From Eledone cirrhosa (taxonomy: Eukaryota), in the NCBI GenBank assembly GCA_964016885.1, contig OZ024741.1, positions 70,990,001-71,054,000 on the forward strand: DNA of 64,000 nt, in the 5' to 3' direction. Both the position numbers and the translations under genes were made by a program. Under the pieces are notes generated by a model that made no database searches, was not told the origin of the DNA, and saw only the letters and a list, made by a program, of their open reading frames with translations. This document shows, in pieces, positions 831-64,000 of this stretch. How positions within the stretch are numbered: position 1 is the stretch's first letter; each line of letters starts with the position of its first letter.

Positions 831-2860
831 ACATGGGAAGAAGAGACCCTACCCCAAGTAAACCCTATAGAGGGACCAGCAGTATAAGTCAGCAGCAGCG
901 TAGTAAGTAAGGCAATCAAAGATATGAAGATGGGGAAGGCAACCGGTCCATCGGGTATAGCTGCCGAGATGCTGAAGGCATCTGGGTCTGTAGGTCACAC
1001 TATAACCACACGTATCATTAACCAGGTAATACTAGAAGGGGCCATACCAAAAGATTGGTGCAGTAGCATCATTGTCAACTGCTACAAAGGCAAAGGCGAT
1101 GCACTAGATAGAGGAAACTATAGAGGTATAAAGTTGATGGACCAGGTCATGAAAGTAACAGAAAGAGTTATAGCACAGCTGATTAGGGACCGGGTGAATA
1201 TAGACGAGATGCAATTTGGGTTTGTACCAGGAAGAAGCACCACTGATGCCCTCTTCCTTGTGAGGCAATTACAGGAAAAGTACCTAGCTAAAAGTAAGCC
1301 ACTCTACTTGGCATTTGTCGACCTTGAGAAAGCCTTTGACAGAGTTCCACGTGCTGTAATCTGGTGGGCTCTTAGAAAACTAGGAGTAGATGAATGGCTT
1401 GTGAAAGCGGTACAAGCCATGTATAGGGAAGCAGTCAGCAAAGTTAGGATTAGCAATGAGTATAGCGAGGAATTTAGCGTACAGGTTGGGGTCCACCAGG
1501 GCTCTGTTCTTAGCCCTCTCCTGTTCATCATAGTCCTGCAGGCAATAACGGAGGAGTTTAAGACCGGATGCCCATGGGAACTCCTGTATGCTGATGAGCT
1601 CGCACTCATAGCTGAATCTATGGTAGAACTAGAGAATAAATTCCAAACCAGGAAGCAGGGACTAGAGAGAAAGGGTCTCAAAGTCAACATGACCAAGACT
1701 AAGGTCCTTGTAAGTAGACGAGAAAACAGAACCCAGATCCCCTCGGAGAAATGGCCTTGCTCAGTATGTAGGAAAGGTGTAGGTAGGAACTCCATTCTCT
1801 GCCCCAAATGCAAACAATGGGTACACAAGAGATGTAGCGGGATCTCAGGAAGCTTAATTAAGAATGTAGGATTCACATGCAGCAGCTGTGCTGAAACAGC
1901 AAGCAGCAAACAGCCACAGGAAACAAGTACCACCAATCTCTGGGAGGGCCCTGTAGAAACAGTAGACAGCTTCTGCTACCTAGGTGACCGAATTAGCAGC
2001 AGAGGTGGGTGTTCAGAAAGTAGAATAACTAGGGTAAGAACGGGATGGAAGAAGTTTAGGGAACTACTACCACTGCTAGCTGCAAAAGGCTTCTCCCTCA
2101 GAATGAAAGGCAGACTGTATGATGCGTGTATCCGAACAGCCATGTTGCATGGTAGTGAGACCTGGGCGCTGAAGGTGGAAGACTTACGTAGATTAGAGAG
2201 AAACGAAGCCTGCATGCTCCGATGGATGTGTAACAGTAATATACGTGAACGACAAAGCATAAATGAATTGAGAGAGAGACTGAGCATAAGAGGAATCAAA
2301 TGCTGTGTGCAGGAGAGGCGGTTGCGCTGGTATGGACATGTGATGCGTATGAAGGATGACAGCTGCATAAAAAGGTGCAGAGCACTAGAAATTGATGGAA
2401 ACCGCGGAGTGGGGAGACCCAAGATGACTTGGGATGCGGTGATAAAAGCCGACCTTACCCAATTACACCTCTCAAAGACAATGACACACGACCGTGACTT
2501 CTGGCGTCACGCAGTAATACAGAGTACCCGACCTCCCATGGGTACATGCTGAAGCATATAAACAATATGCCCCCACACCCCCCACCGCAAGGTGGTCGTG
2601 GAGGTGCCACGGCAAAAAAGCACCCAGCCCACACTGTAAAGTGGACGTGTAGGCGCCACGAAAAAGCACCCAGCACTCACTGTAAATGAGGTTGGTGTTA
2701 GGAAGGGCATCCAGCTGTAGAAATCAAGCCAGATCAGTTCCTGTATGAGCAAGGCATGGTCAGCCGACCAGACACTGCACACAACAGGACAACCCGTCTA
2801 ACCGATGCTAGCGTGGAAGAACGGACGTAAAACGGTGATGATGATGATGATGATGATGAT
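831..2860 (+). mobile_element. 5'-truncated RTE-clade LINE with 3' UTR and (TGA)n tail
   Basis: Carries the RT ORF. The 3' UTR has GGTTGGTGTTAGGAAGGGCATCCAGCTGTAGAAA and a (TGA)n tail at ~2837-2860. Flanking sequence 701-790 recurs at ~2859-2925. Confidence 0.95.
924..2552 (+). pseudogene. RTE LINE reverse transcriptase (partial ORF) with embedded PHD-like finger; catalytic YADD reads YADE
   Basis: Motifs NYRGIKL, QFGFVPGRSTTDA, FVDLEKAFDRV, GVHQGSVLSPLLF, LLYADE, FCYLG, RLRWYGHVMR and GRPKMTW. No endonuclease domain is present. Confidence 0.92.
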
Positions 2861-3476
2861 ACACACACACATATATATATTTATATATATACACCCACAC
2901 AAAACTATATATATATATATATACATACGGAGGTGGGTTCTTCTTACATTCCACCACATTTATTATACATGAACACTATCAGACTCTTAATATCATAATT
3001 GGCATTTATCTGAAGGTTACTGAGTGCAACTTCCTCAGGCTGAGGGAGACAGGGGCAATGTGGGGCATGGATTGTGAGTGTGTGAGTGCAGTTTTGTCTT
3101 TTGTCATTATGACACTTTCAATAAGTAAGTTGGCAAATAATACAAACAGACTACTTTACTTTCTCCTCCACCCAGATTGTTTTATGTTTTCCTTGGTGGT
3201 GGTCATGGTGGCCTCTATGGTGCACACACTCTCCTCTTCCACAATATTATATATAGTATTATATTGATTTTTTTTATTTGTCTATTTTATATTATATTCA
3301 GATGTTTTAATTTTGTTTTCCACATCTCCCTGCTTCTTTCCCTAACTCCTGCCCCACCCCAATTCCATGATCCCCACCCCGTCCCCTTGCCACATCAATA
3401 CCCAACCCCTACCCCAGGCGCCTCTCATACTTTCATCTGAAATCCAATCATTTTAACAATTATTAACCTTCTCTGT

Positions 3477-6400
3477 CAACATCATCACCAGTACCATCAT
3501 CATCACCACCGTCACAAACATCACCAGTACCATCATCATCACCACTGTCACAAACATCACCACTACCATCATCATCATCACCACTGTCACAAACATCACC
3601 ACCACCATCATCACCACCACTGTCACAAACATCACCACTACCATCATCATCATCACCACTGTCACAAACATCACCAGTACCATCATCATCATCACCACTG
3701 TCACAAACATCACCACTACCATCATCATCACCACTGTCACAAACATCACCACTACCATCATCATCACCACTGTCACAAACATCACCAGTACCATCATCAT
3801 CACCACTGTCACAAACATCACCAGTACCATCATCATCACCACTGTCACAAACATCACCACTACCATCATCATCACCACTGTCACAAACATCACCAGTACC
3901 ATCATCATCACCACTGTCACAAACATCACCACTACCATCATCATCACCACTGTCACAAACATCACCACTACCATCATCATCACCACTGTCACAAACATCA
4001 CCACTACCATCATCATCACCACTGTCACAAACATCACCAGTACCATCATCATCACCACTGTCACAAACATCACCACTACCATCATCATCACCACTGTCAC
4101 AAACATCACCACTACCATCATCATCACCACTGTCACAAACATCACCAGTACCATCATCATCACCACTGTCACAAACATCACCAGTACCATCATCATCACC
4201 ACTGTCACAAACATCACCACTACCATCATCATCACCACTGTCACAAACATCACCAGTACCATCATCATCACCACTGTCACAAACATCACCACTACCATCA
4301 TCATCACCACTGTCGCAAACATCACCACTACCATTATCATCACCACTGTCACAAACATCACCACTACCATCATCATCACCACTATCACAAACATCACCAG
4401 TACCATGATCATCACCACTATCACAAACATCACCACTACCATCATCATCACCACTGTCACAAACATCACCAGTACCATCATCATCATCACCACTATCACA
4501 AACATCACCACTACCATCATCATCACCACTGTCACAAACATCACTACTACCATCATCACCACCACTGTCACAAACATCACCAGTACCATCATCATCACCA
4601 CTGTCACAAACATCACCAGTACCATCATCATCACCACTGTCACAAACATCACCAGTACCATCATCATCATCACCACTATCACAAACATCACCACTACCAT
4701 CATCATCACCACCACTGTCACAAACATCACCACTACCATCATCATCACCACCACTGTCACAAACATCACCACTACCATCATCATCATCACCACTGTCACA
4801 AACATCACCAGTACCATCATCATCATCACCACTGTCACAAACATCACCACTACCATCATCATCACCAGTCACAAACATCACCACTACCATCATCATCACC
4901 ACTGTCACAAACATCACCAGTACCATCATCATCACCACTGTCACAAACATCACCAGTACCATCATCATCACCACTGTCACAAACATCACCACTACCATCA
5001 TCATCATCACCACTATCACAAACATCACCAGTACCATGATCATCACCACTGTCACAAACATCACCAGTACCATGATCATCACCACTGTCACAAACATCAC
5101 CAGTACCATCATCATCACCACTGTCACAAACATCACCAGTACCATCATCATCACCACTGTCACAAACATCACCAGTACCATCATCATCACCACTGTCACA
5201 AACATCACCACTACCATCATCATCATCACCACTATCACAAACATCACCAGTACCATGATCATCACCACTGTCACAAACATCACCACTACCATCATCATCA
5301 CCACTGTCACAAACATCACCAGTACCATCATCATCATCACCACTATCACAAACATCACCACTACCATCATCATCACCACTGTCACAAACATCACCACTAC
5401 CATCATCATCATCACCACTGTCACAAACATCACCAGTACCATCATCATCATCACCACTGTCACAAACATCACCACTACCATCATCATCACCAGTCACAAA
5501 CATCACCACTACCATCATCATCACCACTGTCACAAACATCACCACTACCATCATCATCACCACTGTCACAAACATCACCAGTACCATCATCATCATCACC
5601 ACTATCACAAACATCACCACTACCATCATCATCACCACTGTCACAAACATCACCAGTACCATCATCATCATCACCACTATCACAAACATCACCACTACCA
5701 TCATCATCACCACTGTCACAAACATCACCAGTACCATCATCATCATCACCACTATCACAAACATCACCACTACCATCATCATCACCACTGTCACAAACAT
5801 CACCAGTACCATCATCATCATCACCACTATCACAAACATCACCACTACCATCATCATCATCACCACTGTCACAAACATCACCACCACCATCATCATCACC
5901 ACTGTCACAAACATCACCAGTACCATCATCATCATCACCACTATCACAAACATCACCACTACCATCATCATCACCACTGTCACAAACATCACCAGTACCA
6001 TCATCATCATCACCACTATCACAAACATCACCACTACCATCATCATCATCACCACTGTCACAAACATCACCAGTACCATCATCATCATCACCACTATCAC
6101 AAACATCACCACTACCATCATCATCATCACCACTATCACAAACATCACCACTACCATCATCATCATCACCACTGTCACAAACATCACCAGTACCATCATC
6201 ATCATCACCACTATCACAAACATCACCACTACCATCATCATCATCACCACTATCACAAACATCACCAGTACCATCATCATCATCACCACTATCACAAACC
6301 TCACCAGTACCATCATCATCATCACCACTATCACAAACATCACCACTACCATCATCATCACCACTGTCACAAACATCACCAGTACCATCATCATCATCAC

Positions 6401-9400
6401 CACTATCACAAACATCACCACTACCATCATCATCACCACTGTCACAAACATCACCAGTACCATCATCATCACCACTATCACAAACATCACCAGTACCATC
6501 ATCATCACCACTGTCACAAACATCACCAGTACCATCATCATCATCACCACTGTCACAAACATCACCACTACCATCATCATCACCACTGTCACAAACATCA
6601 CCAGTACCATCATCATCATCACCACTATCACAAACATCACCACTACCATCATCATCACCACTGTCACAAACATCACCAGTACCATCATCATCACCACTAT
6701 CACAAACATCACCAGTACCATCATCATCACCACTGTCACAAACATCACCAGTACCATCATCATCATCACCACTATCACAAACATCACCACTACCATCATC
6801 ATCACCACTGTCACAAACATCACCAGTACCATCATCATCACCACTATCACAAACATCACCAGTACCATCATCATCACCACTGTCACAAACATCACCAGTA
6901 CCATCATCATCATCACCACTGTCACAAACATCACCACCACCATCATCACCACTATCACAAACATCACCACCACCATCATCATCACCACTGTCACAAACAT
7001 CACCACTACCATCATCATCACCACTATCACAAACATCACCAGTACCATCATCATCATCACCACTGTCACAAACATCACCACCACCATCATCACCACCACT
7101 ATCACAAACATCACCAGTACCATCATCATCACCACTGTCACAAACATCACCAGTACCATCATCATCATCACCACTGTCACAAACATCACCACCACCATCA
7201 TCACCACCACTATCACAAACATCACCACCACCATCATCACCACCACTATCACAAACATCACCACCACCATCATCATCACCACTATCACAAACATCACCAC
7301 TACCATCATCATCACCACTGTCACAAACATTACCACCACCATCATCACCACCACTATCACAAACATCACCAGTACCATCATCATCACCACTGTCACAAAC
7401 ATCACCAGTACCATCATCATCATCACCACTGTCACAAACATCACCACTACCATCATCATCACCACTATCACAAACATCACCACCACCATCATCATCACCA
7501 CTATCACAAACATCACCAGTACCATCATCATCATCACCACTGTCACAAACATCACCACCACCATCATCACCACCACTATCACAAACATCACCAGTACCAT
7601 CATCATCACCACTGTCACAAACATCACCAGTACCATCATCATCATCACCACTGTCACAAACATCACCACTACCATCATCATCACCACTATCACAAACATA
7701 ACCAGTACCATCATCATCATCACCACTATCACAAACATCACCAGTACCATCATCATCATCACCACTGTCACAAACATCACCACCACCATCATCACCACCA
7801 CTATCACAAACATCACCACCACCATCATCACCACCACTATCACAAACATCACCAGTACCATCATCATCACCACTGTCACAAACATCACCACTACCATCAT
7901 CATCACCACTGTCACAAACATCACCAGTACCATCATCATCATCACCACTGTCACAAACATCACCACCACCATCATCACCACCACTATCACAAACATCACC
8001 ACCACCATCATCACCACCACTATCACAAACATCACCAGTACCATCATCATCACCACTGTCACAAACATCACCACTACCATCATCATCACCACTGTCACAA
8101 ACATCACCAGTACCATCATCATCATCACCACTGTCACAAACATCACCACCACCATCATCACCACCACTATCACAAACATCACCACTACCATCATCATCAC
8201 CACTATCACAAACATCACCAGTACCATCATCATCATCACCACTGTCACAAACATCACCACCACCATCATCACCACCACTATCACAAACATCACCACTACC
8301 ATCATCACCACCACTATCACAAACATAACCAGTACCATCATCATCATCACCACTATCACAAACATCACCAGTACCATCATCATCATCACCACTATCACAA
8401 ACATCACCAGTACCATCATCATCATCACCACTATCACAAACATCACCACTACCATCATCATCACCACTGTCACAAACATCACCAGTACCATCATCATCAT
8501 CACCACTGTCACAAACATCACCACCACCATCATCACCACCACTATCACAAACATCACCACCACCATCATCACCACCACTATCACAAACATAACCAGTACC
8601 ATCATCACCACCACTATCACAAACATAACCAGTACCATCATCATCATCACCACTATCACAAACATCACCAGTACCATCATCATCATCACCACTATCACAA
8701 ACATCACCAGTACCATCATCATCATCACCACTATCACAAACATCACCACTACCATCATCATCACCACTGTCACAAACATCACCAGTACCATCATCATCAT
8801 CACCACTGTCACAAACATCACCACCACCATCATCACCACCACTATCACAAACATCACCACCACCATCATCATCACCACTATCACAAACATAACCAGTACC
8901 ATCATCATCATCACCACTATCACAAACATCACCACTACCATCATCATCACCACTGTCACAAACATCACCACCACCATCATCACCACCACTATCACAAACA
9001 TCACCAGTACCATCATCATCACCACTGTCACAAACATCACCAGTACCATCATCATCATCACCACTATCACAAACATCACCAGTACCATCATCATCACCAC
9101 TGTCACAAACATCACCACTACCATCATCATCATCACCACTATCACAAACATCACCACTACCATCATCATCACCACTGTCACAAACATCACCACCACCATC
9201 ATCACCACCACTATCACAAACATCACCACTACCATCATCATCACCACTGTCACAAACCTCACCAGTACCATCATCATCACCACTGTCACAAACATCACCA
9301 CTACCATCATCATCATCACCACTGTCACAAACATCACCACCACCATCATCATCACCACTGTCACAAACATCACCACCACCATCATCATCACCACTGTCAC

Positions 9401-11850
9401 AAACATCACCACTACCATCATCATCACCACTATCACAAACATCACCAGTACCATCATCATCACCACTGTCACAAACATCACCAGTACCATCATCATCATC
9501 ACCACTATCACAAACATCACCACTACCATCATCATCACCACTGTCACAAACCTCACCAGTACCATCATCATCACCACTGTCACAAACATCACCACTACCA
9601 TCATCATCATCACCACTGTCACAAACATCACCACTACCATCATCATCACCACTGTCACAAACATCACCACCACCATCATCATCACCACTGTCACAAACAT
9701 CACCACTACCATCATCATCACCACTATCACAAACATCACCACCACCATCATCATCACCACTGTCACAAACATCACCACTACCATCATCATCATCACCACT
9801 GTCACAAACATCACCAGTACCATCATCATCATCACCACTATCACAAACATCACCACTACCATCATCATCACCACTGTCACAAACCTCACCAGTACCATCA
9901 TCATCATCACCACTGTCACAAACATCACCACTACCATCATCATCATCACCACTGTCACAAACATCACCAGTACCATCATCATCATCACCACTATCACAAA
10001 CATCACCACTACCATCATCATCACCACTGTCACAAACCTCACCAGTACCATCATCATCATCACCACTGTCACAAACATCACCACTACCATCATCATCATC
10101 ACCACTATCACAAACATCACCAGTACCATCATCATCATCACCACTGTCACAAACATCACCAGTACCATCATCATCATCACCACTATCACAAACATCACCA
10201 GTACCATCATCATCATCACCACTGTCACAAACATCACCAGTACCATCATCATCATCACCACTATCACAAACATCACCAGTACCATCATCATCATCACCAC
10301 TGTCACAAACATCACCACTACCATCATCATCATCACCACTGTCACAAACATCACCAGTACCATCATCATCATCACCACTATCACAAACATCACCAGTACC
10401 ATCATCATCATCACCACTGTCACAAACATCACCAGTACCATCATCATCATCACCACTATCACAAACATCACCAGTACCATCATCATCATCACCACTGTCA
10501 CAAACATCACCACTACCATCATCATCATCACCACTGTCACAAACATCACCAGTACCATCATCATCATCACCACTATCACAAACATCACCAGTACCATCAT
10601 CATCATCACCACTGTCACAAACATCACCAGTACCATCATCATCATCACCACTATCACAAACATCACCAGTACCATCATCATCATCACCACTATCACAAAC
10701 ATCACCAGTACCATCATCATCATCACCACTATCACAAACCTCACCAGTACCATCATCATCATCACCACTGTCACAAACATCACCACTACCATCATCATCA
10801 TCACCACTGTCACAAACATCACCAGTACCATCATCATCATCACCACTGTCACAAACATCACCAGTACCATCATCATCATCACCACTGTCACAAACATCAC
10901 CACTACCATCATCATCACCACTGTCACAAACATCACCACTACCATCATCATCACCACTGTCACAAACATCACCAGTACCATCATCATCATCACCACTATC
11001 ACAAACATCACCAGTACCATCATCATCACCACTGTCACAAACATCATCACCACCACTGTCACAAACATCACCAGTACCATCATCATCATCACCACTGTCA
11101 CAAACATCACCACTACCATCATCATCACCACTGTCACAAACATCATCACCACCACTGTCACAAACATCACCAGTACCATCATCATCATCACCACTGTCAC
11201 AAACATCACCACTACCATCATCATCACCACTGTCACAAACATCATCACCACCACTGTCACAAACATCACCAGTACCATCATCATCATCACCACTGTCACA
11301 AACATCACCACTACCATCATCATCACCACTGTCACAAACATCACCAGTACCATCATCATCATCACCACTGTCACAAACATCACCAGTACCATCATCATCA
11401 TCACCACTGTCACAAACATCACCACCACCATCATCACCACCACTGTCACAAACATCACCACTACCATCATCATCATCACCACTATCACAAACATCACCAG
11501 TACCATCATCATCATCATCACCACTATCACAAACATCACCAGTACCATCATCATCACCACTGTCACAAACATCACCAGTACCATCATCACCACCACTGTC
11601 ACAAACATCACCAGTACCATCATCACCACCACTATCACAAACATCACCAGTACCATCATCATCACCACCACTGTCACAAACATCACCAGTACCACCATCA
11701 ACATCACCACTATCACAAACATCACCAGTACCACCATCAACATCACCACTATCACAAACATCACCAGTACCATCATTGCCACCACTATCACAAACATCAC
11801 CAGTACCACCATCAACATCACCACCACTTTCACAAGCACAACCACTGTAC
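3477..11850. repeat. 8.4 kb minisatellite, 36/39-bp unit ACCACT(G/A)TCACAAACATCACC(AGT/ACT/ACC)ACC(ATC)3-4
   Basis: Directly visible tandem array with degenerate edges. It explains the very long low-complexity ORFs. Confidence 0.98.
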
Positions 11851-12062
11851 CATCTCTGCTATTATCTTCACCCCTCCTACCCACCCTTAATATTGATACA
11901 AATGAGAGAATAAGTCTGTCTGTAATACAACATCTGTTCATTATTCCAGGTTACACTCACCAGAGCTAAAACAAAACAACTTCTACAATCACACAGAAAA
12001 AAGAAGATAGCAAAATATATACATTTCTTTATCTATCTAACCTAACCTGATAAAATAATTGT

Positions 12063-16491: not shown

Positions 16492-16549
<58 letters not shown>

Positions 16550-16688
16550 CCAAAAGTTAAACAAGGTTCATTGATTAATCAATGAATATAGTTTTACAAT
16601 AGATTAGAAGCACTCAACAATAACGTTTTCTGGAGTTATTAATATTAATTCAAAATATTAATAAATATAGACATTCAACGTAATCAAA

Positions 16689-16760
16689 ATATATTTTATT
16701 ATATGTATTTCGAAGGTACTGTGCTGTTTTTTCAGTACGTCCTCATCAGATAAAATATAT
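16689..16760 (-). ncRNA. Type I hammerhead ribozyme
   Basis: ATATATTTTAT-CTGATGA-GGACGTACTG..CAGTACCTTC-GAAA-TACATA-TA-ATAAAATATAT. Confidence 0.8.
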
Positions 16761-16850
16761 AAATTGATGTATGACATACCTCAACTGTGGCAGACTGCCA
16801 AGACTGGAATTGAACCATCAGCACAATTGAGGTATGTCATACATCAATTT

Positions 16851-16922
16851 ATATATTTTATCTGATGAGGGCGTACTGATAAAACAGCACAGTACCTCCG
16901 AAATATATATAATAAAATATAT
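16851..16922 (+). ncRNA. Type I hammerhead ribozyme
   Basis: 11-bp stem I ATATATTTTAT/ATAAAATATAT, CTGATGA at 16862, stem II GGGCGTACTG/CAGTACCTCC, GAAA at 16900, palindromic stem III ATATATAT, predicted cleavage after A16911. Confidence 0.88.
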
Positions 16923-16962
16923 TTTGATTACGTTGAATGTCTATATTTATTAATATTTTGAA

Positions 16963-17013
<51 letters not shown>

Positions 17014-25663: not shown

Positions 25664-25748
25664 TTTTTTCCTTTTGTAATCTTTGTTTCATATATATATA
25701 TATATATATATACAATATTAAATAAATGGAAACTATATTTATAAAACC

Positions 25749-25825
25749 ATATTTATTTCATTATATATATTTCGGGGATATCATATTAACAATATGCTAT
25801 GCCTTCCTCAGACAAAATACAATAT
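25749..25825 (-). ncRNA. Type I hammerhead ribozyme (mirror copy)
   Basis: Reverse complement of 25933-26009. Confidence 0.72.
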
Positions 25826-25932
25826 AAACAGTTTTATAGATAAATAGATTCGACATACCGTTATAACACCGACTTCCATTTGAAGTCGGTGTTATAACGG
25901 TATGTCGAATCTATTTATCTATAAAACTGTTT

Positions 25933-26009
25933 ATATTGTATTTTGTCTGAGGAAGGCATAGCATATTGTTAATATGATATCCCCGAAATATATATAATGA
26001 AATAAATAT
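25933..26009 (+). ncRNA. Type I hammerhead ribozyme
   Basis: ATATTGTATTTTGT-CTGAGGA-AGGCATAGCATATT..AATATGATATCCCC-GAAA-TATATA-TA-ATGAAATAAATAT. The first pair of stem II is mismatched (A-C). Confidence 0.72.
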
Positions 26010-26335
26010 GGTTTTATAAATATAGTTTCCATTTATTTAATATTGTAAATTTACTCCAAATATTTGTCGAGTGCTTTTATATCAGTTATAAATATTTACT
26101 AGTTGTTAACCCAACAATTTTAAATATAACTTTCCATGTATATATATATATATATATATATTTATTGTCATCATTTCAACTTTTCCTGGGTTGAACAAGA
26201 CTTTCTGAGGCAATGTTTTACTGCTGGATGCCCTTCCTGACACCAACCCTTTTAGTCACCTCTTACCACATGCAGGCATACAGTTTGCCTATTTTATACT
26301 GAATAGACATAGCCATATATATGTGTGTGTGGGTA

Positions 26336-37261: not shown

Positions 37262-40200
37262 CATCATCATCAACGTTTAACGTCCGTGTTCCACGCTTGC
37301 ATGGGTTTGGACGGGGGTTTTCCCACTTGAGGCAAGAGTGATTGTTTTGCTCGCATAGGACTGTCTGGCGGGTTTTCTACAGCTGGATGCCCTTCTTTAC
37401 ATCAACCACATTTACAGTGTGGGGCTGGGAGGTTTTTACCGTGTTGCCTACACGGCCACATTACAGCGTGGACTGTGTGTTTTTTTTGTCGTGACACCTA
37501 CACGATCTCATTTGTTTCGGCCTGGATGTTGTGGCACCAACATAACTTTACATTGAAAGGGGCGGTGTGGATGGGGTAGGGGTGGTGGGACGGGGGTGTA
37601 TTTTGTTAGAGATGCCTACTGACTGTAGGAGGTTTTGCTTTGTATTTAGGTAAGGCGGGTCTTCTCTATTACTGAGTACCGCCAAAGATCTCGGTCCAGT
37701 GACATTGTCTTGGAGAGGTGTAAGTGTGTGAGGTCAGAATTTATCAGGTTGCCCCAGGTTTTTCTGGGTCTGCCTACTCCGTAGCTACCGTCTATCTTTA
37801 TTGCCCTGCACTTTGTTATACAGCTGTCGTCTTTCATGCGCATCACGTGACCATACCAACGTAGCCTTCTCTCGAGTAAACAACATCTGATCCCTCTTAT
37901 TTCTAATTTTTTCCTTAGTTCGTTTATGCTTTGCCGTTCACGTATATTACTATTACACATCTAGCGGAGCATGCAAGCTTCGTTCCTCTCTAGTCTGCGT
38001 ATATCCTCTGCACACAATGCCCAGGTCTCACTGCCATGCAACATTGCTGTTCGTATGCAGGCATCATACAACCTGCCTTTAATTTTTAAGGAGAACCCTT
38101 TAGCGGCTAATAGTGGTATAAGCTCTCTGAACTTTTTCCATCCAGTTCTGACTCTAGCTACTGTACTTTCAGAGCACCCTCCCCCACTGCTGATTTTGTC
38201 ACCCAGGTAACGGAAGCTGTCCACTATTTCTATAGAACCCTCTGCGCAATTGAAAGAGCTAGTATTTTGTGGGCACTTGCTGCTACTTATTGCACCAGAG
38301 CACCGGCCACATGTAAAATCTATGTTCTTAGTTAGCTTACCTGTGATCCCACTACATCTTTTATGCACCCATACTTTGCATTTGGGACATAAAATGGAGT
38401 TTCTACCTACGCCTTTCCTACACACTGAGCATGGCCACTTCCCGGAAGGGACCGCCGCCTTATTTTCTTTCTTACAAACTAGAACTTTAGTCTTAGCCAG
38501 GTTAATTTTAAGGCCTTTTGATTCTAGGCCGTGCTTCCATGCTTGGAATTTCTTCTCTAGCTCGGCCATTGATTCAGCTATGAGTGTTAGGTCATCTGCT
38601 TATAGGCGTTCCCATGGGCAGCCGGTCTTGAACTCCTCTGTTATAGCCTGAAGGGCAATAATAAATAGTAGGGGGCTGAGAACAGAGCCCTGATGGACGC
38701 CAACTTTTACGCTAAACTCTTCACTATATTCGTTGTTAATTCTAACCTTGCTGACTGTTTCTTTATACATGGCTTGTATAGCTCTCACAAGCCATTCGTC
38801 AACACCTAGTTTTCTAAGACCCCACCAGATAATGGAACGGGGGACTTTGTCGAAGGCTTTCTCCAAGTCGACAAAAGCTAAGTATAGGGGTTTACTTTTA
38901 GCTAGGTACTTCTCCTGTAGTTGTCATACAATGAAAAGAGCGTCTGTGGTACTTTTCCCTGACACAAACCCGAACTGCATTTCATCTAGATCAATTCTCT
39001 CTCTGATTAGTTGCGCTATTACTTTTTCCGTGACCTTCATGACCTGGTCGATTAATTTAATGCCTCTATAGTTACTCCTATCTAGGGCATCTCCTTTACC
39101 CTTATAACAGTTAACGATAATGCTGCTACGCCAGTCCTTCGGAACAACCCCATTCTGTACGACTTGGTTAACTATCCAGGTGACCATGGTGTGTCCCACC
39201 GTACCAGATGCCTTCAGCATCTCAGCAACTATTTCCGAAGGCCCAGCCGCCTTACCCGTCTTCATATCTTTGATTGCCTTACTTATTATACTACCTTTGA
39301 CTAACACAGCTGGTCTCTCTATTGGGTCGATGTGGGGGAGACTGTCTTTCTCCCATTTATTCTCCTCATTTAGTAGCCTTTCGTAGTGACACTTCCAAGC
39401 TACCTTCTTATTAGCATCAGTGATGGCAAGTACGCCGTCATCATTAAGTACACACTTCTCCTCGACAATATTACGGTTTTCCTTGACACATTGCCTAGCA
39501 ATCCTGAACACCTCACATTTTTGATCCTCGCGTTGTAGAACATGCTTGAACTTTCTTTCCTCTGCTTCCCTTCTTGCGAAGTACATTTGTCTCCTAGCTT
39601 CCCTCCTGGCCACTTGATAGTCTTCTCTACTTCCCCCATCCCGCCATACTTTCCAAGCCTGCTTTTTGGCCTTAATTGACCCCTCCACCTTACTGTTCCA
39701 CCACCATGTTACTCTCCTCCTGCCTACAGGCCTGCTCCAGCCACAGACTTCATCTGCCGCCATCAGCAGGTTTGCTTTCAGGAATTCCCACTGTTCCTCT
39801 ATATTGTACGACTCTAATTGCTCTTCCTTACTGTCGAAAGCATCAAGTAGTATGCTTTTAAATTTATTTCTGGCTGTGGGGTCCTTTAGCTTCCATATTT
39901 TTCTCCTGAGGATAGTCCTCTTCTGCTGTCTAGTACGTCTCGTCCTGACTATTAGGTCGCTAATTATCAGTCTATGTTGGGAGGTGCATTCTTCATGGGG
40001 GAGGGATTTAGTGTTTACAACAGACACTCTGTCACGTCTTCTGGTAAGGATATAATCTACCTGGCTTGTGTGTTCCCCGATCTATAGGTGATCAGGTGAT
40101 TGTCACATTTTTTTAAGTTAGTGTTACAGATAGTTAGGTTATTTGCGTCACAGAATTCCAGGATTCTGGAGCCTTCCTCATTTCTAGTACCAAACCCATA

Positions 40201-40799
40201 GCCTCCATGGATTTCGTCGTAGCCGTCACAATGTTGTCCAACGTGACCATTTAGGTCGCCTGCAATAATTATATAGTCACTGTCGGTTATTTGGGAGGTA
40301 GTGAGCATCAGTGTCTCATAGAATCTATCTTTTATAGTGCCGGGCAGTCCGGATTGGGGTGCGTACGCAGATATTACTGTCACCGTAGTTCTATTGAGGA
40401 CAAGTCTTATTTTAATTATTCTGTCGTTCACTCTATTTACGTCTATTATCTTATCTGCCCACTTTTCTGCTACCATGATTCCTACTCCACCCAGCCCATT
40501 GTCATTTCCCACCCAGAAAAGCTTATAGCACCATTTTTTACCCACAATGAATCTAGCAGACCCACCCCTCCACCTGGTCTCTTGAATACAACAAACATCG
40601 ACCTCCTTACGTTCAAGCATTTCTACAACCTCGTTAGAGCGACCCTTTAAGATGCCTACATTCATGGTACCAACTCTGGAGTTTGGGATTGCGTTTGGAG
40701 GGTGGGAGCGGTGGGGCGCGGGGGGAGATGGGGTTATGTTAGCCATCCGCGGCCGAAACAAAGAGGAGTGCTCGCATTCTCGTCCATGAGGTGAATTTG
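37262..40799 (-). mobile_element. Near full-length RTE LINE (APE + RT + PHD-like finger), disrupted; TSD TCCAACAT
   Basis: APE motifs GTMNVG, CIQETRW, SAYAPQ and GDLNGHVG, plus RT motifs. One frameshift (~40060) and stops at 38924, 38600 and 37961. TCCAACAT occurs at 37254-37261 and 40800-40807. Confidence 0.96.
37646..40746 (-). pseudogene. RTE endonuclease-reverse transcriptase ORF broken into five pieces
   Basis: ORF fragments 40057-40761, 38924-40027, 38600-38866, 37961-38569 and 37646-37960 are collinear. Confidence 0.93.
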
Positions 40800-40805
40800 T
40801 CCAAC

Positions 40806-40807
<2 letters not shown>

Positions 40808-40848
<41 letters not shown>

Positions 40849-41369
40849 TGGCTAAGTGGTTAAGGAGTTCACTTCACAACCAGTTTGATCTGGACTCAAT
40901 CCCGTTGCATAGCACTTTGGAAAAATATCACGATAGCCTCGAGTTGACTAATGCCGTATGAGTGGAATTTGGTAAACGGAAAATGTGTGCGTGTGCACGC
41001 GCATGTGTGTGTCTGTATGTGTTTACATTTGCGCTTATGTTCTATAACTTAGTGGTTCGGTAAAATAAATACTGGGGTCAGTATGACCAACTAAGTGATG
41101 ACAGTGCTCTAGCATGGTTGTGGTTTACCCACACCACACACATACACACAAGTACACATGCACGTACATATGCACCCTATAGTGTGTGAGGTGAAATGGA
41201 AGATAGATCACAAGGTGGAAAAAAAACTTCCTGATGTTCCAAATAATGATCACAGCTGGACACATTTTTGACATGTAACAAAAGTGTTGAGGAAAGAAAA
41301 AAAATATGAACCAATGAAATAGAAAGTAGTGAAATCAAAATCCTGGGTAGGAAGAGGGTATACAAATGG
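40808..41369. repeat. Inverted duplication, left arm inner part (partner 47355-47933); includes a tRNA-derived SINE at ~40848-41125
   Basis: Near-identical reverse complement of 47355-47933. SINE head TGGCTAAGTGGTTAAGG..GGACTCAATCCC. Confidence 0.94.
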
Positions 41370-45075: not shown

Positions 45076-45174
45076 GAAAGAAACAAGGGGTGAAAGAAAA
45101 AAAGGGAAATAGGGAAAGAAGAAAAGAGGAGAAAACACATGAAGTTGCTAAACAACCAGTCGAATACACACACA

Positions 45175-45220
<46 letters not shown>

Positions 45221-45221
<1 letters not shown>

Positions 45222-47058
45222 CCCTAGATAGGAGTAACTATAGAGGCATTAAACTAATCGACCAGGTCATGAAGGTCACGGAAAAAGTAATAGCGCAACT
45301 AATCAGAGAGAGAATTGACCTAGATGAAATGCAGTTCGGGTTTGTGTCAGGCAAAAGTACCACAGACGCTCTTTTCATTGTACGTCAACTACAGGAGAAG
45401 TACCTAGCTAAAGGTAAACCCCTCTACTTAGCTTTTGTCGACTTGGAGAAAGCCTTCGACAGAGTCCCCCGTTCCATTATCTGGTGGGCCCTTAGAAAAC
45501 TAGGTGTCGACGAATGGCTTGTGAGAGCTATACAAGCCATGTATAAAGAAACAGTCAGCAAGGTTAGAATTAACAACGAATATAGTGAAGAGTTTAGCGT
45601 AAAAGTTGGCGTCCATCAGGGCTCTGTTCTCAGCCCCCTACTATTTATTATTGCCCTTCAGGCTATAACAGAGGAGTTCAAGACCGGCTGCCCATGGGAA
45701 CTCCTATACGCAGACGACCTGACACTCATAGCTGAATCAATGGCCGAGCTAGAGAAGAAATTCCAAACATGGAAGCACGGCCTAGAATCAAAAGGCCTTA
45801 AAATTAACCTGGCTAAGACTAAAGTTCTAGTTTGTAGGAAAGAAAATAAGGCGCCGGTCCCTTCCGAGAAATGGCCATGCTCAGTGTGTAGGAAAGGCGT
45901 AGGTAGAAACTCCATTTTATGTCCCAAATGCAAAGTATGCGTGCATAAAAGATGTAGTGGGATCACAGGTAAGCTAACTAAGAACTTAGATTTTACATGT
46001 GGGTGGTGCTCTGGTGCAATAAGTAGCAGCGAGTGCCCACAAAATACTAACTCTTTCAATTGCGCAGAGGGCTCTATAGAAATAGTGGACAGCTTCCGTT
46101 ACCTGGGTGACAAAATCAGCAGTGGGGGAGGGTGCTCCGAAAGTACAGCAGTTAGAGTCAGAACTGGATGGAAAAAGTTCAGAGAGCTTATACCACTATT
46201 AGCCGCTAAAGGTTTTCTCCCTAAAAATGAAAGGCAGGTTGTATGATGCCTGCATACGAACAGCAATGTTGCATGGCAGCGAGACCTGGGCATTGTGCGC
46301 AGAGGATATACGCAGACTAGAGAGGAACGAAGCTTGCATGCTCCGCTGGATGTGTAATAGTAATATACGTGAACGGCAAAGCATAAACGAACTAAGGAAA
46401 AAATTAGAAATAAGAGGGATCAGATGTTGTTTACTCGAGAGAAGGCTACGTTGGTACGGACACGTGATGCGCATGAAAGTCGATAGCTGTATAACAAAGT
46501 GCAGGGCAATAAAGATAGACGGTAGCCACGGAATAGGCAGACCTAGAAAATCCTGGGACGAGCTGATAAACTCCGACCTCACACACTTACACCTCTCCAA
46601 GACAATGTCACTGGACCGAGACCTTTGGCGGTACTCAGTAATAGAGAAGACCCGCCTTAACTAAATACATAGTAAAACCTACTACAGCCAGTAGGCATCT
46701 CTAACAAAATACACCCCCGTCCCACCACCCACACCCCCATCCACACCACCCCCTCCTATGTAAAGTTATGTTGGTGCCGCACCATCCAGGCCGAAACAAA
46801 TGAGATCGTGTAGGTGTCACGACAAAAAAACACACAGTCCACGCTGTAATGTGGCCGTGTAGGCAACACGGTAAAAACCTCCCAGTCCCACACTGTAAAT
46901 GTGGTTGGTGTTAGGAAGGGCATCCAACTGTAGAAAACCTGCCAGACAGTCCTATGCGAGCAAGACAATCACTCTTGCCTCAAGTGGGAATACCCCCGTC
47001 CAAACCCATGCAAGCGTGGAACACGGACGTTAAACGTTGATGATGATGATGATGATGA
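45221..47058 (+). mobile_element. 5'-truncated RTE LINE with intact YADD and one frameshift (~46215)
   Basis: ORFs 45176-46246 and 46227-46664, 3' UTR and (TGA)n tail. Very similar to 37262-39088 in opposite orientation. Confidence 0.95.
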
Positions 47059-49599: not shown

Positions 49600-50475
49600 A
49601 AGAATTTAACGCAGCCCTTCTTTTTCATCAATTGACCTTTTATTGCCACATTGTCGGCCCTTTTTTTCGCATCTTGCGAAAATAAAAAATAATCCTTTTA
49701 AAATTATCGAAAAATTAGTAGTATTTCATAAACTTTTTGCTACACTCGAGAACAACAACGACAGCAGCATCAGCGACAACATTGTTTAACCACTGACCAA
49801 AACAGGGAATAGTGAGTGGCAGCTTCATAGCCTTACCGACGCAAACCACCACACATCGGAAATATCAAAACGATTCATTCGTGTCGATAATTTAGAGCGA
49901 CTTTTTTTTTTATTCACTTGCATATTCCATTTCCGTTGCCAACTTTTTCGCAACTTACAGAAGAAAAAAGAAAAAAGTGTATTTTTCCAAGGTGGCGTTG
50001 CGTTCCTTCCCAGTTTTGTAACGGACACATATTTTGAATTGCGTATGTGTTCCATGACTGATCAAGAGAGAAGAGACTAAACTTGTTTTTGTGAACATAA
50101 CTGCCCCGCATGGGGATATACATGCCTTACCTTTTTCTAAGGGATTTTTAGCCACTGGCTACCTTTGTTGATATCCAACGCGGATATATTTTTAAAAAAA
50201 AAACATTTTTTTTCTTCCTTTTTTTTTTTTACCTTATTTGATTTGCCTGGTTCGTTGAGGCAACGCGAGGGGACAGACGAAGGAAAAATTTTTTTTTAAA
50301 GATATATATCTGTATTTTATGTATTTTGCATATTTCCTTATGTTTTGAATGTCTGTTTCTTTTTGCCCTTTAACTTTTTCTCAATATTGGCTGTTCTCTT
50401 TTCACTGTACAAGGGTGCATTAATTGCTCTTTCGATATATAGGTATATATATTTGTTTTAATTTTAAAAGTTGAC

Positions 50476-51252
50476 ATGAATGTACCACATTTGCCCGCCT
50501 TTACTGGAAAACCTAAGATGTGGTATGCCCAGTTACAGGCGTATTTTACGGTCTGTAAGACCAAATCTGACCAGCGCCTCGCTGTACTGATTAGCGGCCT
50601 TCCCCCTAATCTAGCAGATTCGGTCCAAGACCTAATTACAGACCCCCCCTCTGACTTGACGTATGAGTTTTTGAAGGGCGAGATTTTGAGGAGGAATTGT
50701 AAGTCGGTAGAGAGTCGTTTTCGGTCACTGATCGAGGACGAACGATTAGGTGACAGGACCCCTACCGCTTTTCTCCGGCATTTGCGGGATTTGAGCGATT
50801 CCCAAGATCAGGATAGCCCTTTCCTGAAGCAATTGTTCTTCTCTCGCCTACCTCAAGAGGTACAGGCGATCCTAGCCCATATGCTAGAGGTGAATACCCT
50901 GGATCACATTGCTGTCTCTGCTGACAAAATTGTAGAGGTGACGAAGAGAGACACTTCGAAGCCAAGGTACGTTGCTTCCTTTTCTCTTCCTCAATCACGC
51001 TCATCAGCGTCTGATGACAAATTAATCACCACTATGGAAGCCATGACTCGTCAAATGGCGGAGTTGTGCACGGAATTCAGGTCCTTTGGACGGCAGAGGA
51101 GCCGTTCTCGACGTTATTCAACTTCTCGCCACCGTAGCCCTTCCAACACACCAGGAACAACATATTGTTATTACCATGAAAGATATGGTAAAAAAGCCGC
51201 CCGTTGTAGGCCTCCTTGTGCTTACAAGGGAAAAGACGACCAGAGTCACTAA
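50476..51252 (+). CDS. gag: Ty3/Gypsy Gag
   Basis: [29 protein letters not shown] and a C-terminal [18 protein letters not shown] knuckle, upstream of pol. Confidence 0.9.
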
Positions 51253-51271
51253 CGGCGGATAGTGCGCTCTG
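51228..51271 (+). promoter_or_regulatory. -1 ribosomal frameshift signal
   Basis: G_GGA_AAA in the gag frame, a 6-nt spacer, then hairpin CAGAG-T-CACTA/TAGTG-CG-CTCTG. pol lies in the -1 frame. Confidence 0.75.
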
Positions 51272-60695: not shown

Positions 60696-60729
<34 letters not shown>

Positions 60730-60764
60730 CGATATTAATAAATGGAAACTATATTTATAAAACC

Positions 60765-60840
60765 ATATTTATTTCATTATACATATTTCAGGGATACCAC
60801 ATTAAATTATGGTATGCCTTCATCAGACAAAATACAATAT
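60765..60840 (-). ncRNA. Type I hammerhead ribozyme
   Basis: ATATTGTATTTTGT-CTGATGA-AGGCATACCATA/TGTGGTATCCCT-GAAA-TATGTA-TA-ATGAAATAAATAT. Confidence 0.85.
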
Positions 60841-62521
60841 ATAACAGTTTTACAAATAGCTTTGACGTACCCTTTTAAAATACAACCATTAGTTTTGGAG
60901 GCTGTCTGGATAGTGATTTGTTTACATTGTTTTAATAAGTCATAGTGTTAAGCACAATTAGAAAAAGACGGAGAGAAAGAAAAAGAAAAAGACGGAGAGA
61001 GAGAAAAGAACAAAGACGGAGAGAGAGAAAGAAAGAGAAAGAAACCCTGGAGAAATATCGGAGAGAGAGAGAAATGTATGGAGAAAAGAAAGAGATAAAT
61101 ACAGATAGGAGAAAATAAAAAATAAAAAATAAAAAATAAAAAATAAAAAATAAAAAATAAAAAATAAAAAATAAAAAATAAAAAATAAAAAATAAAAAAT
61201 AAAAAAAAATAAATAAAAAATAAAAAATAAAAAATAAAAAATAAAGAAAAGGAAGAAATAAGAGAAACAGGAAAGCAACAGAGGGATATCAAGTCATCAT
61301 ACAGAGAGAGAAACACTCAAGAGAGAGAAATACTATATAGAGAGGGGGGGGGGGGGACAATGAAAATTTTACGTCATGTCATATTAAGTTAAGTTAACAA
61401 TTTATATGAAATGAATAATAAAAATATAAGTATCAATATTCATGAATGGGACATAGATATATAATATGAGAAATTAAACATTGTTCAATAATGACTATAT
61501 GTTTAGTTTAGAAACTTGAGATCAATATACCAAAATCTGAGTTCAAAATATACCCTTGCTATAGAGATCAGTATTTTATGCAAAGACATACAAATATATA
61601 TGTATATATATATATACATAGATACGCATGTCCTGAAAATAGAAATTATGTTTACTCAAGCCAACAATATAGCCATACAAAACGTAAATGATTTCTCTTA
61701 ATCACTGCTATACATTCCTTGTGTTATAAAAATTTCACAGTATATATATACAAATATATACGATTAATATATACGATTACCATTCATGTGCTTAATATTA
61801 TGCATATCTCCAACATACCTCTCAACCAGATAGATATATACACATACGTATATACACACACATATGTATAAATAAATATTTGCGTGCATCGTCATGCATC
61901 ACTCATGTATATATACAGACATATATAGACACAAAAAAAAACCTATAACACTTTTTATGCATGTTAATATACACATATGCATTTGTATAGAGATAATCAA
62001 ATATCAATATATTACTAAAGGATTATAACTTGTAAATATAACCATAACAATATAAATCTAAAATACCAAAGGAATATATTTTGGAAATGTAACTGTATCA
62101 GTATAGACATAAGGAATCTAGAAATATCAAAGCATTAAATATCTTATACTATAGAGTATCTTAAGTTAAAATAATATGTTTTATATATTTATTATAGAAA
62201 TTTATCCTACGTATATCTCAATCAAGATATTGAAAGGGTAGACTTATGAAAGTTATGAGAAGCTATCATAATCAAAACAAATAAATAAAAATGATTTAAA
62301 AGATTTAAAAAACCCAATGATTCTACAGATAACCTTATATTTAGTATAGAAATTTACCTTACGTATATTTTATTTAATACATTGGAAGTATAGACATTTT
62401 AGAGTAGTCTATTATATCCTTGTTTATATTTAGGAAGAAAGTTTAAAAAGAAAAAGGTGAAGGAATCTAATGATTTATCAACAGGTTCCATATATTAACT
62501 AAAATTGCTTAATTAATTATA

Positions 62522-64000
62522 CTACATTTTAAATTTATATTTATATTTAAACGTTGAGTTCAATCTATGTCTGCAGCAACTGAATAAATTGTTCCTTAGA
62601 TTAAGGGAATTTTTGGACTTTAATATAAAGAATATTTCTTCAATACAAAGACCACAATTCTCTGAAGAGGAATTAAAAGGAGTAGCTTTTGAAATAATAT
62701 TCCAATTCATCGAATATTTAATATTATCTCGTTTTAGGTCCCATAGTAGGCTAGATAGCGAAGTTGAAGATTTTTTGTTTGGATCTGTGAAAGAATTCTT
62801 ATGATTATTGAAGCGAAATTTAAATTCTGTAGAGGTGGAACCAACATAGTTAAATGAATTTAAATTAGTGTTAACATTACAATTGTACACTACATTTTTA
62901 GCTAAGCAGTTGTTGTTTAACGGACAGTTAGATTTATTTCTACAGTTACAGTTATATAATTGAATATTGTTTGGGTTATTATTGGTATTTTGGTTAGGTT
63001 TTAAATTCCTATTATTAATTCTATTAATATTTTGTGCTAAATTTTTGGTGGACGAGTAAGTTAATTTTATAGTGTGTCTATTAAAAATTGAGTAATATTT
63101 ATGTGTTCTAGGGAAGCGTGTGTCAAGAGCTTTAAAGAATAGTTTAGCAATAGGGGTTTTAATATTTAGAGAGAAAGGGGGAGCAAACCATAATATATTT
63201 CTAGTTCTATTTCTTTTTCTGCTTTTGGAATTATTGTAATGTTTTCTACTATAGTTGTTAAAGTTGTTACCGTAATTGAAATTGTTATTATTTTGGTTAG
63301 TTTGCTTATTATTATTATTATCGATGTATTTAATTTTATTTCTATATCCAGCTCTACCTAACGCTTCGTTGTAATACTGCGCTTTTTCATCAAATATATT
63401 TTTATTAGATGAAATTCTTGAAATTCGTTCTTGAACAGAGTTCACTATAGTATTTTTAACAGATCTGGGGTGATTAGAGTTAAAGTTGACATAATTCAAG
63501 TTCTCATTTAGTTTGTGAAATGGATAGTGAAGACATGTGTTGAGATTTAGTGTTACATCAAGAAAATTGACTATTCTATGGTTATTCTCTATTTCTATTT
63601 TTAGATTAAGGTAATTAAAAAATTGTATAATTTGTTTTCTTTTTCTATTTAGTTCACAGCTATTATTTTCTATAAGTAAAAGCATGTCATCCCGAAATAA
63701 TCCTCCGGTTACACCTGGTATTTTTCTATGTAGCGAATTAATTATAAATAGGCCCACAAGGTCCGTTACCTGAGCTGAGTCTGATGATCCCATAGTTATG
63801 TCGAAATTATTATTTCTATCTGCTCTAGTCCAGAGTTGGTTATTAAATTCTATCAATGTTTTCCTTGCCGATAATATAATGTGCATTTCATTGCTAGTTA
63901 GGTCAGTATGTTTAAATGCGTAATTTAGTGCCTTATTCAGTAGATTAGGAGTGATAGATGAATAGTAGTTAGCAATATCCAGCTGAATAAACTTATTATT
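62522..64000 (-). CDS. Penelope-like RT + C-terminal GIY-YIG endonuclease (5' partial, open to window edge)
   Basis: The frame stays open upstream of 63886 (FIQLDIANYYSSIT). Motifs ITMGSSDSAQVTDLVG, GLFRDD, VNFLDVTL, SNHP, CNCRNKSNCPL, VVY..YVG..RFNNH, CGLCIEE and CRH. Confidence 0.93.
   Translation of the reverse strand, partial: NNKFIQLDIANYYSSITPNLLNKALNYAFKHTDLTSNEMHIILSARKTLIEFNNQLWTRADRNNNFDITMGSSDSAQVTDLVGLFIINSLHRKIPGVTGGLFRDDMLLLIENNSCELNRKRKQIIQFFNYLNLKIEIENNHRIVNFLDVTLNLNTCLHYPFHKLNENLNYVNFNSNHPRSVKNTIVNSVQERISRISSNKNIFDEKAQYYNEALGRAGYRNKIKYIDNNNNKQTNQNNNNFNYGNNFNNYSRKHYNNSKSRKRNRTRNILWFAPPFSLNIKTPIAKLFFKALDTRFPRTHKYYSIFNRHTIKLTYSSTKNLAQNINRINNRNLKPNQNTNNNPNNIQLYNCNCRNKSNCPLNNNCLAKNVVYNCNVNTNLNSFNYVGSTSTEFKFRFNNHKNSFTDPNKKSSTSLSSLLWDLKRDNIKYSMNWNIISKATPFNSSSENCGLCIEEIFFILKSKNSLNLRNNLFSCCRHRLNSTFKYKYKFKM

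Follow-up and report, generated by a model that had tools for sequence, protein, structure and literature searches.

Putative hammerhead ribozymes with a conserved stem II mismatch in Hydra-type Penelope-like elements of Eledone cirrhosa

The window, i.e., the whole 64-kb stretch of Eledone cirrhosa DNA that was analyzed, contains at 3441-11969 a tandem satellite of ~ 8.5 kb, built from CATCACCA.../GTCACAAA-type units. The satellite has no stop codons in any of the six frames, and its long "ORFs" are repeat artefacts. Non-LTR retrotransposon fragments are located at 888-2552(+), 37961-38599(-), 40057-40851(-), 45152-46246(+), and 51210-52556(+); they encode RVT_1 with a PHD finger, and an Exo_endo_phos endonuclease. 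A DUF7041 match lies at 50443-51252. Two head-to-head pairs of short element ends, family A (16640..16971) and family B (25705..26138), and one copy of a Hydra-type Penelope-like element (PLE; 60730..64000, minus strand), which is cut by the window end, carry the hammerhead motifs described here.

A motif scan identified five hammerhead motif copies in the window, at 16749(-), 16862(+), 25811(-), 25947(+), and 60826(-). The same five were recovered at E ≤ 5e-13 with a covariance model of 52 genomic copies, together with one marginal match (E 0.68), and the pattern CTGATGA-N15-45-CGAAA was found twice in the window versus 0.14 expected. The first-pass annotation had listed four of these ribozymes; all four stem II sequences that it quoted are present, while the fifth copy, the inverted twin at 25811(-), had been omitted. 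Every copy consists of the hammerhead core, a stem I of 8–11 bp, a stem II of 10–11 bp and an 8-nt palindromic stem III. The conserved core positions, i.e., C3 U4 G5 A6 N7 G8 A9, G12 A13 A14, A15.1-U16.1 and H17 (not G), are found in 5/5 copies, as is a C.C opposition at the fourth pair of stem II (10.4/11.4).

The 16.9 kb copy is a type I hammerhead motif on the plus strand (16851..16922) that forms the right arm of family A and scores 80.3 bits with the covariance model. The 11-nt 5' strand of stem I (16851-16861) is followed by the CUGAUGA core (16862-16868) and by the stem II hairpin (16869..16899), which has 10 positions, 9 of them paired, and an 11-nt loop. Within the hairpin, the 5' strand GGGCGUACUG (16869-16878), the loop (16879-16889) and the 3' strand CAGUACCUCC (16890-16899) place C10.4 at 16872 opposite C11.4 at 16896, a mismatch seen in the sequence, the alignment and the RNAalifold structure. 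The GAAA core (16900-16903) leads into the palindromic stem III AUAUAUAU, which runs from A15.1 to U16.1 (16903..16910) and is supported by sequence, palindrome covariation and cofolding. A17 (16911) and the complementary 11-nt 3' strand of stem I (16912-16922) complete the motif. We infer a putative self-cleavage directly after A17, the predicted site lying between 16911 and 16912.

The left arm of family A (16689..16760, minus strand), identified by scan, fold and covariance model, has stem II GGACGUACUG/CAGUACCUUC and stem III AUACAUAU. Family B has the core CUGAGGA in its left arm (25754..25819, minus strand; scan and covariance model), and in its right arm (25939..26004, plus strand) C10.4 corresponds to 25957 and C11.4 to 25981. 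The remaining copy, assigned to a B-like family by scan, fold and covariance model (60770..60834, minus strand), has stem II AGGCAUACCAU/GUGGUAUCCCU with the C.C at pair 4 and stem III AUAUGUAU. The sequence following GAAA is TATATATA in three window copies, TACATATA at 16.7 kb and TATGTATA at 60.8 kb. The statement that all copies keep pairing holds in part: in the 25.8 and 25.9 kb copies the C.C at pair 4 is accompanied by A.C at pair 1 (10.1/11.1) and G.A at pair 8 (10.8/11.8).

Folding of the 16.9 kb copy returned stem I and stem II at -13 kcal/mol, and a 1x1 internal loop in stem II was present in the single-copy folds at 16.9, 16.7, and 60.8 kb (z -2.7, -3.1, and -2.1, respectively). For the 25.9 kb copy, the hammerhead is not the minimum-energy structure (z 0.07). 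Rfam gave no match at gathering score in the whole window, and none of its hammerhead families matched 16600-17000 even at E ≤ 10. It did return miRNA-like matches to the long inverted repeat, led by MIR6140 with 76.7 bits versus a gathering score of 140; these arise because the two inverted-repeat arms pair with each other.

Comparison of the arms indicated that the family A pair consists of two 5'-truncated element ends, with 150-nt arms (16640-16789(-) and 16822-16971(+)) that are 97% complementary and separated by a 32-nt spacer (16790-16821). The 172-nt arms of family B (25705-25876(-) and 25882-26053(+)) are 99% complementary across a 5-nt spacer. Each pair carries a tail on one side only: in family A this is a 3' tail of about 90–95 nt on the left arm (16550..16639, minus strand), conserved among copies, and in family B it spans 26054-26138. 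The outer ends of both pairs adjoin the (TA)n microsatellite target, which flanks family A at 16499..16544 and 16970-17009 and is also found at 25691-25712, 26139-26160, and about 60713-60729. When the ends of 33 family A copies were surveyed (4 overlapping loci were dropped), 15 ended 54–73 nt past the predicted cut site, 14 carried the conserved tail and 4 had other flanks; in 13 of the 14 tailed copies (TA)n begins 147–185 nt past the cut site. Six inverted pairs in family A have one short end and one long, tailed end, and head-to-head truncated pairs with a one-sided tail make up many of the insertions. Within the family A tail, a patch of 7–10 nt at about 16617-16629, between ...CTCCAGAAA and GTTGAGTGCTT..., differs in nearly every copy; it is seen at the same place in L002, L004, L007, L008, L012, L019, L022, and L027, and looks like a junction made afresh at each insertion. 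The family B tail has a comparable GAGTGCTT motif.

Both families are numerous in the genome. The family A arm gave 909 first-look candidates, and identity among the 57 scored matches was 86–100%; the family B arm gave 847, with all 56 scored matches being 98–100% identical. Family B, with its CUGAGGA core, is the most abundant, youngest and most uniform family, 47 of 103 motif instances being identical (loci L031-L060). Among the sequencing runs listed for its 349-nt element, none is an RNA run; the four that are listed come from a single study, have no recorded kind and are stored as contigs. Its ORFs are intact elsewhere (L142) despite the extra mismatches and a minimum-energy fold that is not a hammerhead. 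These two properties of the family suggest that ribozyme function may be dispensable, and, as far as structure prediction goes, the family may be able to spread without ribozyme activity.

The motif at 60.8 kb differs from the paired copies in its surroundings. Based on tblastn and ORF motifs, the element at 60730..64000 comprises, in the minus direction, the C-terminal 492 aa of a reverse transcriptase (RT)-endonuclease ORF (62522-64000), ~ 1.7 kb of non-coding sequence and the hammerhead, and it ends with a 48-nt 3' end adjoining (TA)n. By this arrangement, a Hydra-type element with an ORF extending beyond the window has the motif as its predicted 3' hammerhead. The window ORF is 80% identical (tblastn) over residues 259-736 to P0001, a 745-aa ORF that lies 1.5 kb upstream of a motif elsewhere. 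The same order of ORF and motif on one strand is found in L142, L144, and L181. Two long inverted copies are present in L142, each consisting of an ORF, ~ 1.5 kb and the motif with (TA)n, while in L141 two tandem motifs 3890 nt apart surround an ORF and define a unit of ~ 3.9 kb. Longer copies of family B have at least 1.5 kb of sequence in common upstream of the motif.

No Pfam match at E ≤ 0.01 was obtained for P0001 or 12 homologues, and a PDB sequence search with the P0001-family profile returned no matches. P0001 matches PLE ORFs by BLASTP (E 1e-7), and its family profile matches Pfam-positive RT + GIY-YIG ORFs from this genome with a probability of 97.8% (E 1e-12, 573 columns). In P0001 and the window ORF we read SDKTNN, RIRWRAF, CNCRDRSKC, CDLC, CKH, and GIY-YIG at the C-terminus, with a single Cys between (V)VY and YVG and no CxxC inside the GIY-YIG core; P0001 has RWR where the consensus of its family profile has RWK. 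The available portion of Craig et al. 2021 (PMC8557442) gives as traits of the Hydra clade DKT instead of DKG, RWK, a CxCX5C linker, absence of CCHH in the endonuclease, CxxC, CxH, a C-terminal GIY-YIG, insertion in (TA)n and a length of < 3 kb. From its predicted protein motifs and (TA)n target, the host can be assigned to the Hydra clade, only the unit length departing. A Neptune-like host was dropped on this motif list. Hammerheads of Naiad elements overlooked by earlier descriptors were ruled out, the ORF order being RT followed by endonuclease.

The relation between the mismatch and the host protein was followed at further loci. At L108, a family whose stem III is AUGCGCAU and whose mismatch is C.U is found ~ 1 kb downstream of a Hydra-like ORF with only 38–52% identity to P0001, so the mismatch spans deep protein divergence. 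Another hammerhead class, located 290 nt upstream of a further Hydra-like ORF (L136), is free of the mismatch, which the protein family in itself therefore does not require. Judged from these sequences, the mismatch is a mark of a sub-lineage and not of the whole Hydra clade. Among 30 GIY-YIG loci with 1.5-kb flanks, we found one copy of the window subtype and one truncated look-alike; the ORFs at these loci are those of other PLE lineages, whose hammerheads have a short stem II. One short class, UUGCGAAAGCAU with stem III AGUACU, is located ~ 385 nt downstream of Pfam-positive RT + GIY-YIG ORFs. A genome-wide search with the GIY-YIG family gave 10,596 first-look candidates, and all 150 that were scored exceeded the cut-off. 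The 3.0-Gb genome is very rich in Penelope-like elements.

The conservation of the mismatch was examined in a sample of 864 kb, consisting of sixteen stretches of 50 kb each, taken from 15 contigs at arbitrary round-number positions, and the window. The scan required the core (CTGANGA, 8–60 nt, GAAA, 1–14 nt ending in U, a non-G base) and a stem I of at least 5 bp, and left stem II unconstrained. It identified 93 hammerhead motifs, in comparison to one in the reversed sequence. With classes sorted by stem III alone, 63 of the 93 belong to the window subtype, with stem III AUAUAUAU in 31 copies, AUAUGUAU in 14, AUGCGCAU in 12 and single variants in 6. At pair 10.4/11.4, these 63 copies have C.C (48), C.U (14) or C.A (1), and none is paired. 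The proposal that the C.C is conserved in a larger set thus needs rewording: C10.4 is constant and pair 4 is never paired, but the partner is U in 14/63 and A in 1/63, so that the conserved feature is C10.4 opposite a non-G base. Helix II of the subtype spans 8–16 positions and the stem II spacer is 20–36 nt. The 63 copies fall into ~ 8 related sequence groups, which implies few independent retentions of the mismatch.

The remaining 30 motifs are other hammerhead classes in which position 4 is mostly paired or the stem is shorter. At least two such classes exist in the genome (L101, L136, L160, L180, L094, L095, and L099), one of them having A.G at 10.1/11.1 and stem III ACCNNNGGU. Locus L143 contains, at its positions 5357-7461(-), a retrozyme-like tandem array of another hammerhead class, whose units are spaced 524–1052 nt apart, mostly ~ 528, and each combine a (TA)n tract with a short-stem-II hammerhead (UAGCUAACAAGCUU, stem III ACUAGU). 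In metagenomes, the pattern CTGATGA-N24-40-GAAATATATATAAT was found at 45 loci, all of them chance matches with a stem I of 0–1 bp and no stem II. Outside the window, the sample contains 58 copies of the subtype in 800 kb, which extrapolates to roughly 200,000 in the 3.0-Gb genome. Copies in such numbers would stay unannotated, since the Rfam models miss the subtype entirely and published descriptors appear to permit only stem II spacers shorter than the 20–36 nt found here.

For the covariation analysis, 52 distinct sequences were aligned with gaps confined to loop 2. Paired cells amounted to 90.5%, in comparison to 75.6% in shuffles, and the observed value was reached in 0/500 shuffles; the covariation score was 0.548 versus 0.258 shuffled (0/500) and 0.085–0.225 when partners were slid. 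Changes on both sides were found in stem II (8 of 9 pairs), stem I (6 of 8) and the stem III palindrome (2 of 4). Pair 10.4/11.4 (column 19/48) is paired in 0/52 sequences, and RNAalifold, run independently, leaves the same column unpaired, (((.((((((...)))))).))). Covariation around a fixed mismatch, as the first-pass annotation had proposed, is borne out by these values. Other stem II positions are 83–100% paired (93.4% of cells overall), with transversion-type swaps at pairs 3, 8, 9, and 10. Only R-Y occurs at pair 5 and only Y-R at pair 6, and 51/52 sequences have A-U at pair 7; loop 2 is free in both length and sequence. Pair 10.1/11.1 is G-C in 12/52, A-U in 26 and G-U in 9, and none of the 52 aligned sequences has an extra nucleotide between A9 and 10.1. 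Of stem I, 94% is paired, and its 8–11 bp are free of bulges and loops. A C-R-Y-A / U-R-Y-Y block is common to all groups and stem I is the same in most, indicating that the groups are homologous; the mismatch is kept in a group that has stem I ACUGC/GCAGU in place of UAUUUUAU/AUAAAAUA.

Stem III had been suggested to pair either with a second copy or with the (TA)n target. It cannot fold back into a 4-bp hairpin, as a hairpin loop of 2 nt is impossible, and would therefore pair in trans, using a second copy. In 12 of the 52 sequences both inner stem III pairs have changed from A-U to G-C (AUAUAUAU to AUGCGCAU) with the palindrome preserved, and this covariation supports pairing with a second copy. 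Cofolding of two 16.9 kb motifs predicted an 8-bp intermolecular helix at -32.2 kcal/mol versus 2 x -13.0 kcal/mol. The suggestion of pairing with the target found no support: none of the 35 copies with GAAA(TA)4 continues into a longer (TA)n. Sister families with the GC-containing stem III AUGCGCAU likewise insert in (TA)n. The palindrome covariation fits predicted dimer formation and not pairing with (TA)n. A transcript through an inverted pair would carry one sense hammerhead only, so a dimer would have to come from two RNAs or from tandem copies like those of L141.

To our knowledge, Penelope-like elements always carry hammerheads. We propose that the motifs are type I hammerheads with a palindromic stem III, located in the 3' region of Hydra-clade PLEs in (TA)n, whose paired (dimer) form would self-cleave the element RNA. 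The pair-4 mismatch would be kept by selection and, in what is the weakest step, would be where the RT-endonuclease protein of the element itself docks. Taken as a whole, dimer-cutting PLE hammerheads with a mismatch selected as the docking point of this protein are an explanation that we favor tentatively and rate somewhat short of probable. That the mismatch is selected at all is, on the alignment, quite probable. It is taken as selected because the paired stem II is under selection, transversion swaps have occurred, and a repair takes a single C-to-G change, of which none was seen; the swaps at pairs 3, 8, 9, and 10 imply that there was time enough for such a repair. The mismatch is also kept where the proteins are only ~ 38–52% (L108) or 80% (window) identical to P0001.

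The free loop 2, the replaceable stem I without a bulge and the constrained pairs 5–7 would suit a sequence- and shape-specific ligand better than a loop-to-bulge contact. Docking of the protein is preferred because hammerhead cutting was protein-dependent in the sole PLE reconstituted so far. The C.Y mismatch and pairs 5–7 may be a handle by which the Hydra-clade protein seizes its own RNA, with the hammerhead being protein-dependent and a site of RNP assembly; this specific form of the proposal is possible, although we regard it as doubtful. If true, a protein-dependent hammerhead would explain the poor unaided cutting of PLE hammerheads. A mismatch that acts through RNA alone, as a hinge or docking site placed roughly at the start of loop 2 in canonical metazoan hammerheads, which lets stem II contact stem I and speeds cleavage at low magnesium, is slightly more doubtful still. 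The canonical type I helix II has 4 bp and a loop that contacts helix I (PMC4209133), the irregularity here lies at pair 4, pairs 5–7 are constrained, and a bulge interrupts helix II halfway along in D. virilis PLE hammerheads (PMC4209133), all of which would agree with a hinge. However, stem I is 94% paired and without bulge or loop, so the known loop-to-bulge RNA contact lacks a partner, and the mismatch was kept after stem I was replaced, which argues against any co-varying, base-specific partner within stem I.

Two further readings appear to us unlikely, and equally so. The mismatch could be a brake or switch that weakens stem II, leaving the monomer uncut and restricting cleavage to multimeric transcripts or RNPs, in line with the poor in vitro cutting of PLE hammerheads (PMC4209133). 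The monomer is already inactive by the design of stem III (cofold; PMC4209133), as such a switch would have it; against it, the stem beyond the mismatch has a stable 6–12 bp, the 16.7, 16.9, and 60.8 kb copies still fold the hammerhead stems, and the constraint on pairs 5–7 is left unexplained. Alternatively, the mismatch could be ancestral and unselected, persisting since only transversions repair it and the families are young. The C.C is beyond repair by transition, which slows neutral loss, all groups are homologous with a shared block and mostly the same stem I, and many copies are 95–99% identical; the R-Y and Y-R limits at pairs 5 and 6 could likewise reflect transition-only evolution. 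Such inheritance is hard to reconcile with the double changes, including transversion swaps, which show that pairing is selected, so that repair would be favored if stability alone mattered, or with associated proteins that have diverged to ~ 40–50% identity. It is extremely improbable that the motifs are chance matches or non-ribozyme hairpins such as miRNA-like inverted repeats. The Rfam searches, with their miRNA-like matches and their lack of a hammerhead family at E ≤ 10, might be read in this way, but the miRNA-like matches follow from arm–arm pairing, 93 motifs stand against 1 in the reversed control, the 45 metagenome pattern matches have no stems, and all 11 core bases coincide with three co-varying helices. 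One unpaired position in an otherwise freely co-varying stem offers a precise and cheap handle for one-base repairs, with and without the ORF protein.

The subtype resembles the minimal hammerheads of metazoan PLEs (Cervera and De la Pena 2014, PMC4209133) in being type I, with a very short palindromic helix III that implies dimers, a helix II longer than canonical, a location in the terminal repeats of the element, opposite-strand pairs 100–700 bp apart, and many families per genome with compensatory changes. The published consensus, CUGANGA-H-G10.1...C11.1-GAAA, has an extra nucleotide after A9 and a continuous helix II of 4–8 bp; helix II of PLE hammerheads was described as "larger than usual", at 7–8 bp, and these hammerheads cut poorly in vitro (PMC4209133). 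In contrast, the subtype lacks the extra nucleotide, has a helix II of 8–16 positions with a fixed C.Y at pair 4, and departs from the G10.1-C11.1 trait, G-C being present in 12/52 only. No mismatch at pair 4 was seen on reading through the 56 published PLE motifs of Fig. S3 as text (PMC4209133), and literature searches turned up no description of a stem II mismatch in PLE hammerheads.

As far as the available portion of Craig et al. 2021 (PMC8557442) goes, Hydra-clade hammerheads share with the subtype the protein motifs, the (TA)n target and a location near the 3' end, and published PLEs, like the window pairs, include inverted 5'-truncated copies with a one-sided tail. Its File S2 has 26 Hydra-clade rows with a listed stem II of 3–7 nt, i.e., up to 8 pairs with the closing pair, and no unpaired pair 4 was seen in those rows. 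Stem III is given there as 3–4 bp with a 1–3 nt loop, in contrast to the 8-nt palindrome found here, and the unit of ~ 3.9 kb compares with < 3 kb. Poseidon PAc of Anolis carolinensis, from what is accessible of PMC11167929, is likewise a PLE with a hammerhead and a genomic "tail" signature; its reverse transcription is initiated internally, which the window pairs fit, and its hammerhead cuts only when the protein of the element is present, the cutting being dispensable for insertion in vitro. PAc differs in belonging to another PLE clade and in a hammerhead that overlaps the start of the ORF, and that part of the source describes no stem II mismatch. Non-LTR retrozymes, in the accessible parts of PMC7229834 and bioRxiv 10.64898/2026.07.22.740005, are similar in having type I hammerheads in non-coding repeats that are probably mobilized by PLEs; they are direct tandem repeats that give rise to circular RNAs, in contrast to the inverted, 5'-truncated ends of coding elements in the window. 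A non-LTR retrozyme was rejected for the window copies: instead of direct tandem repeats, they form inverted pairs or mark where a coding element ends. From these comparisons of predicted structures, both the ribozyme and its host element are of known kinds, and the subtype is a variant specific to its lineage.
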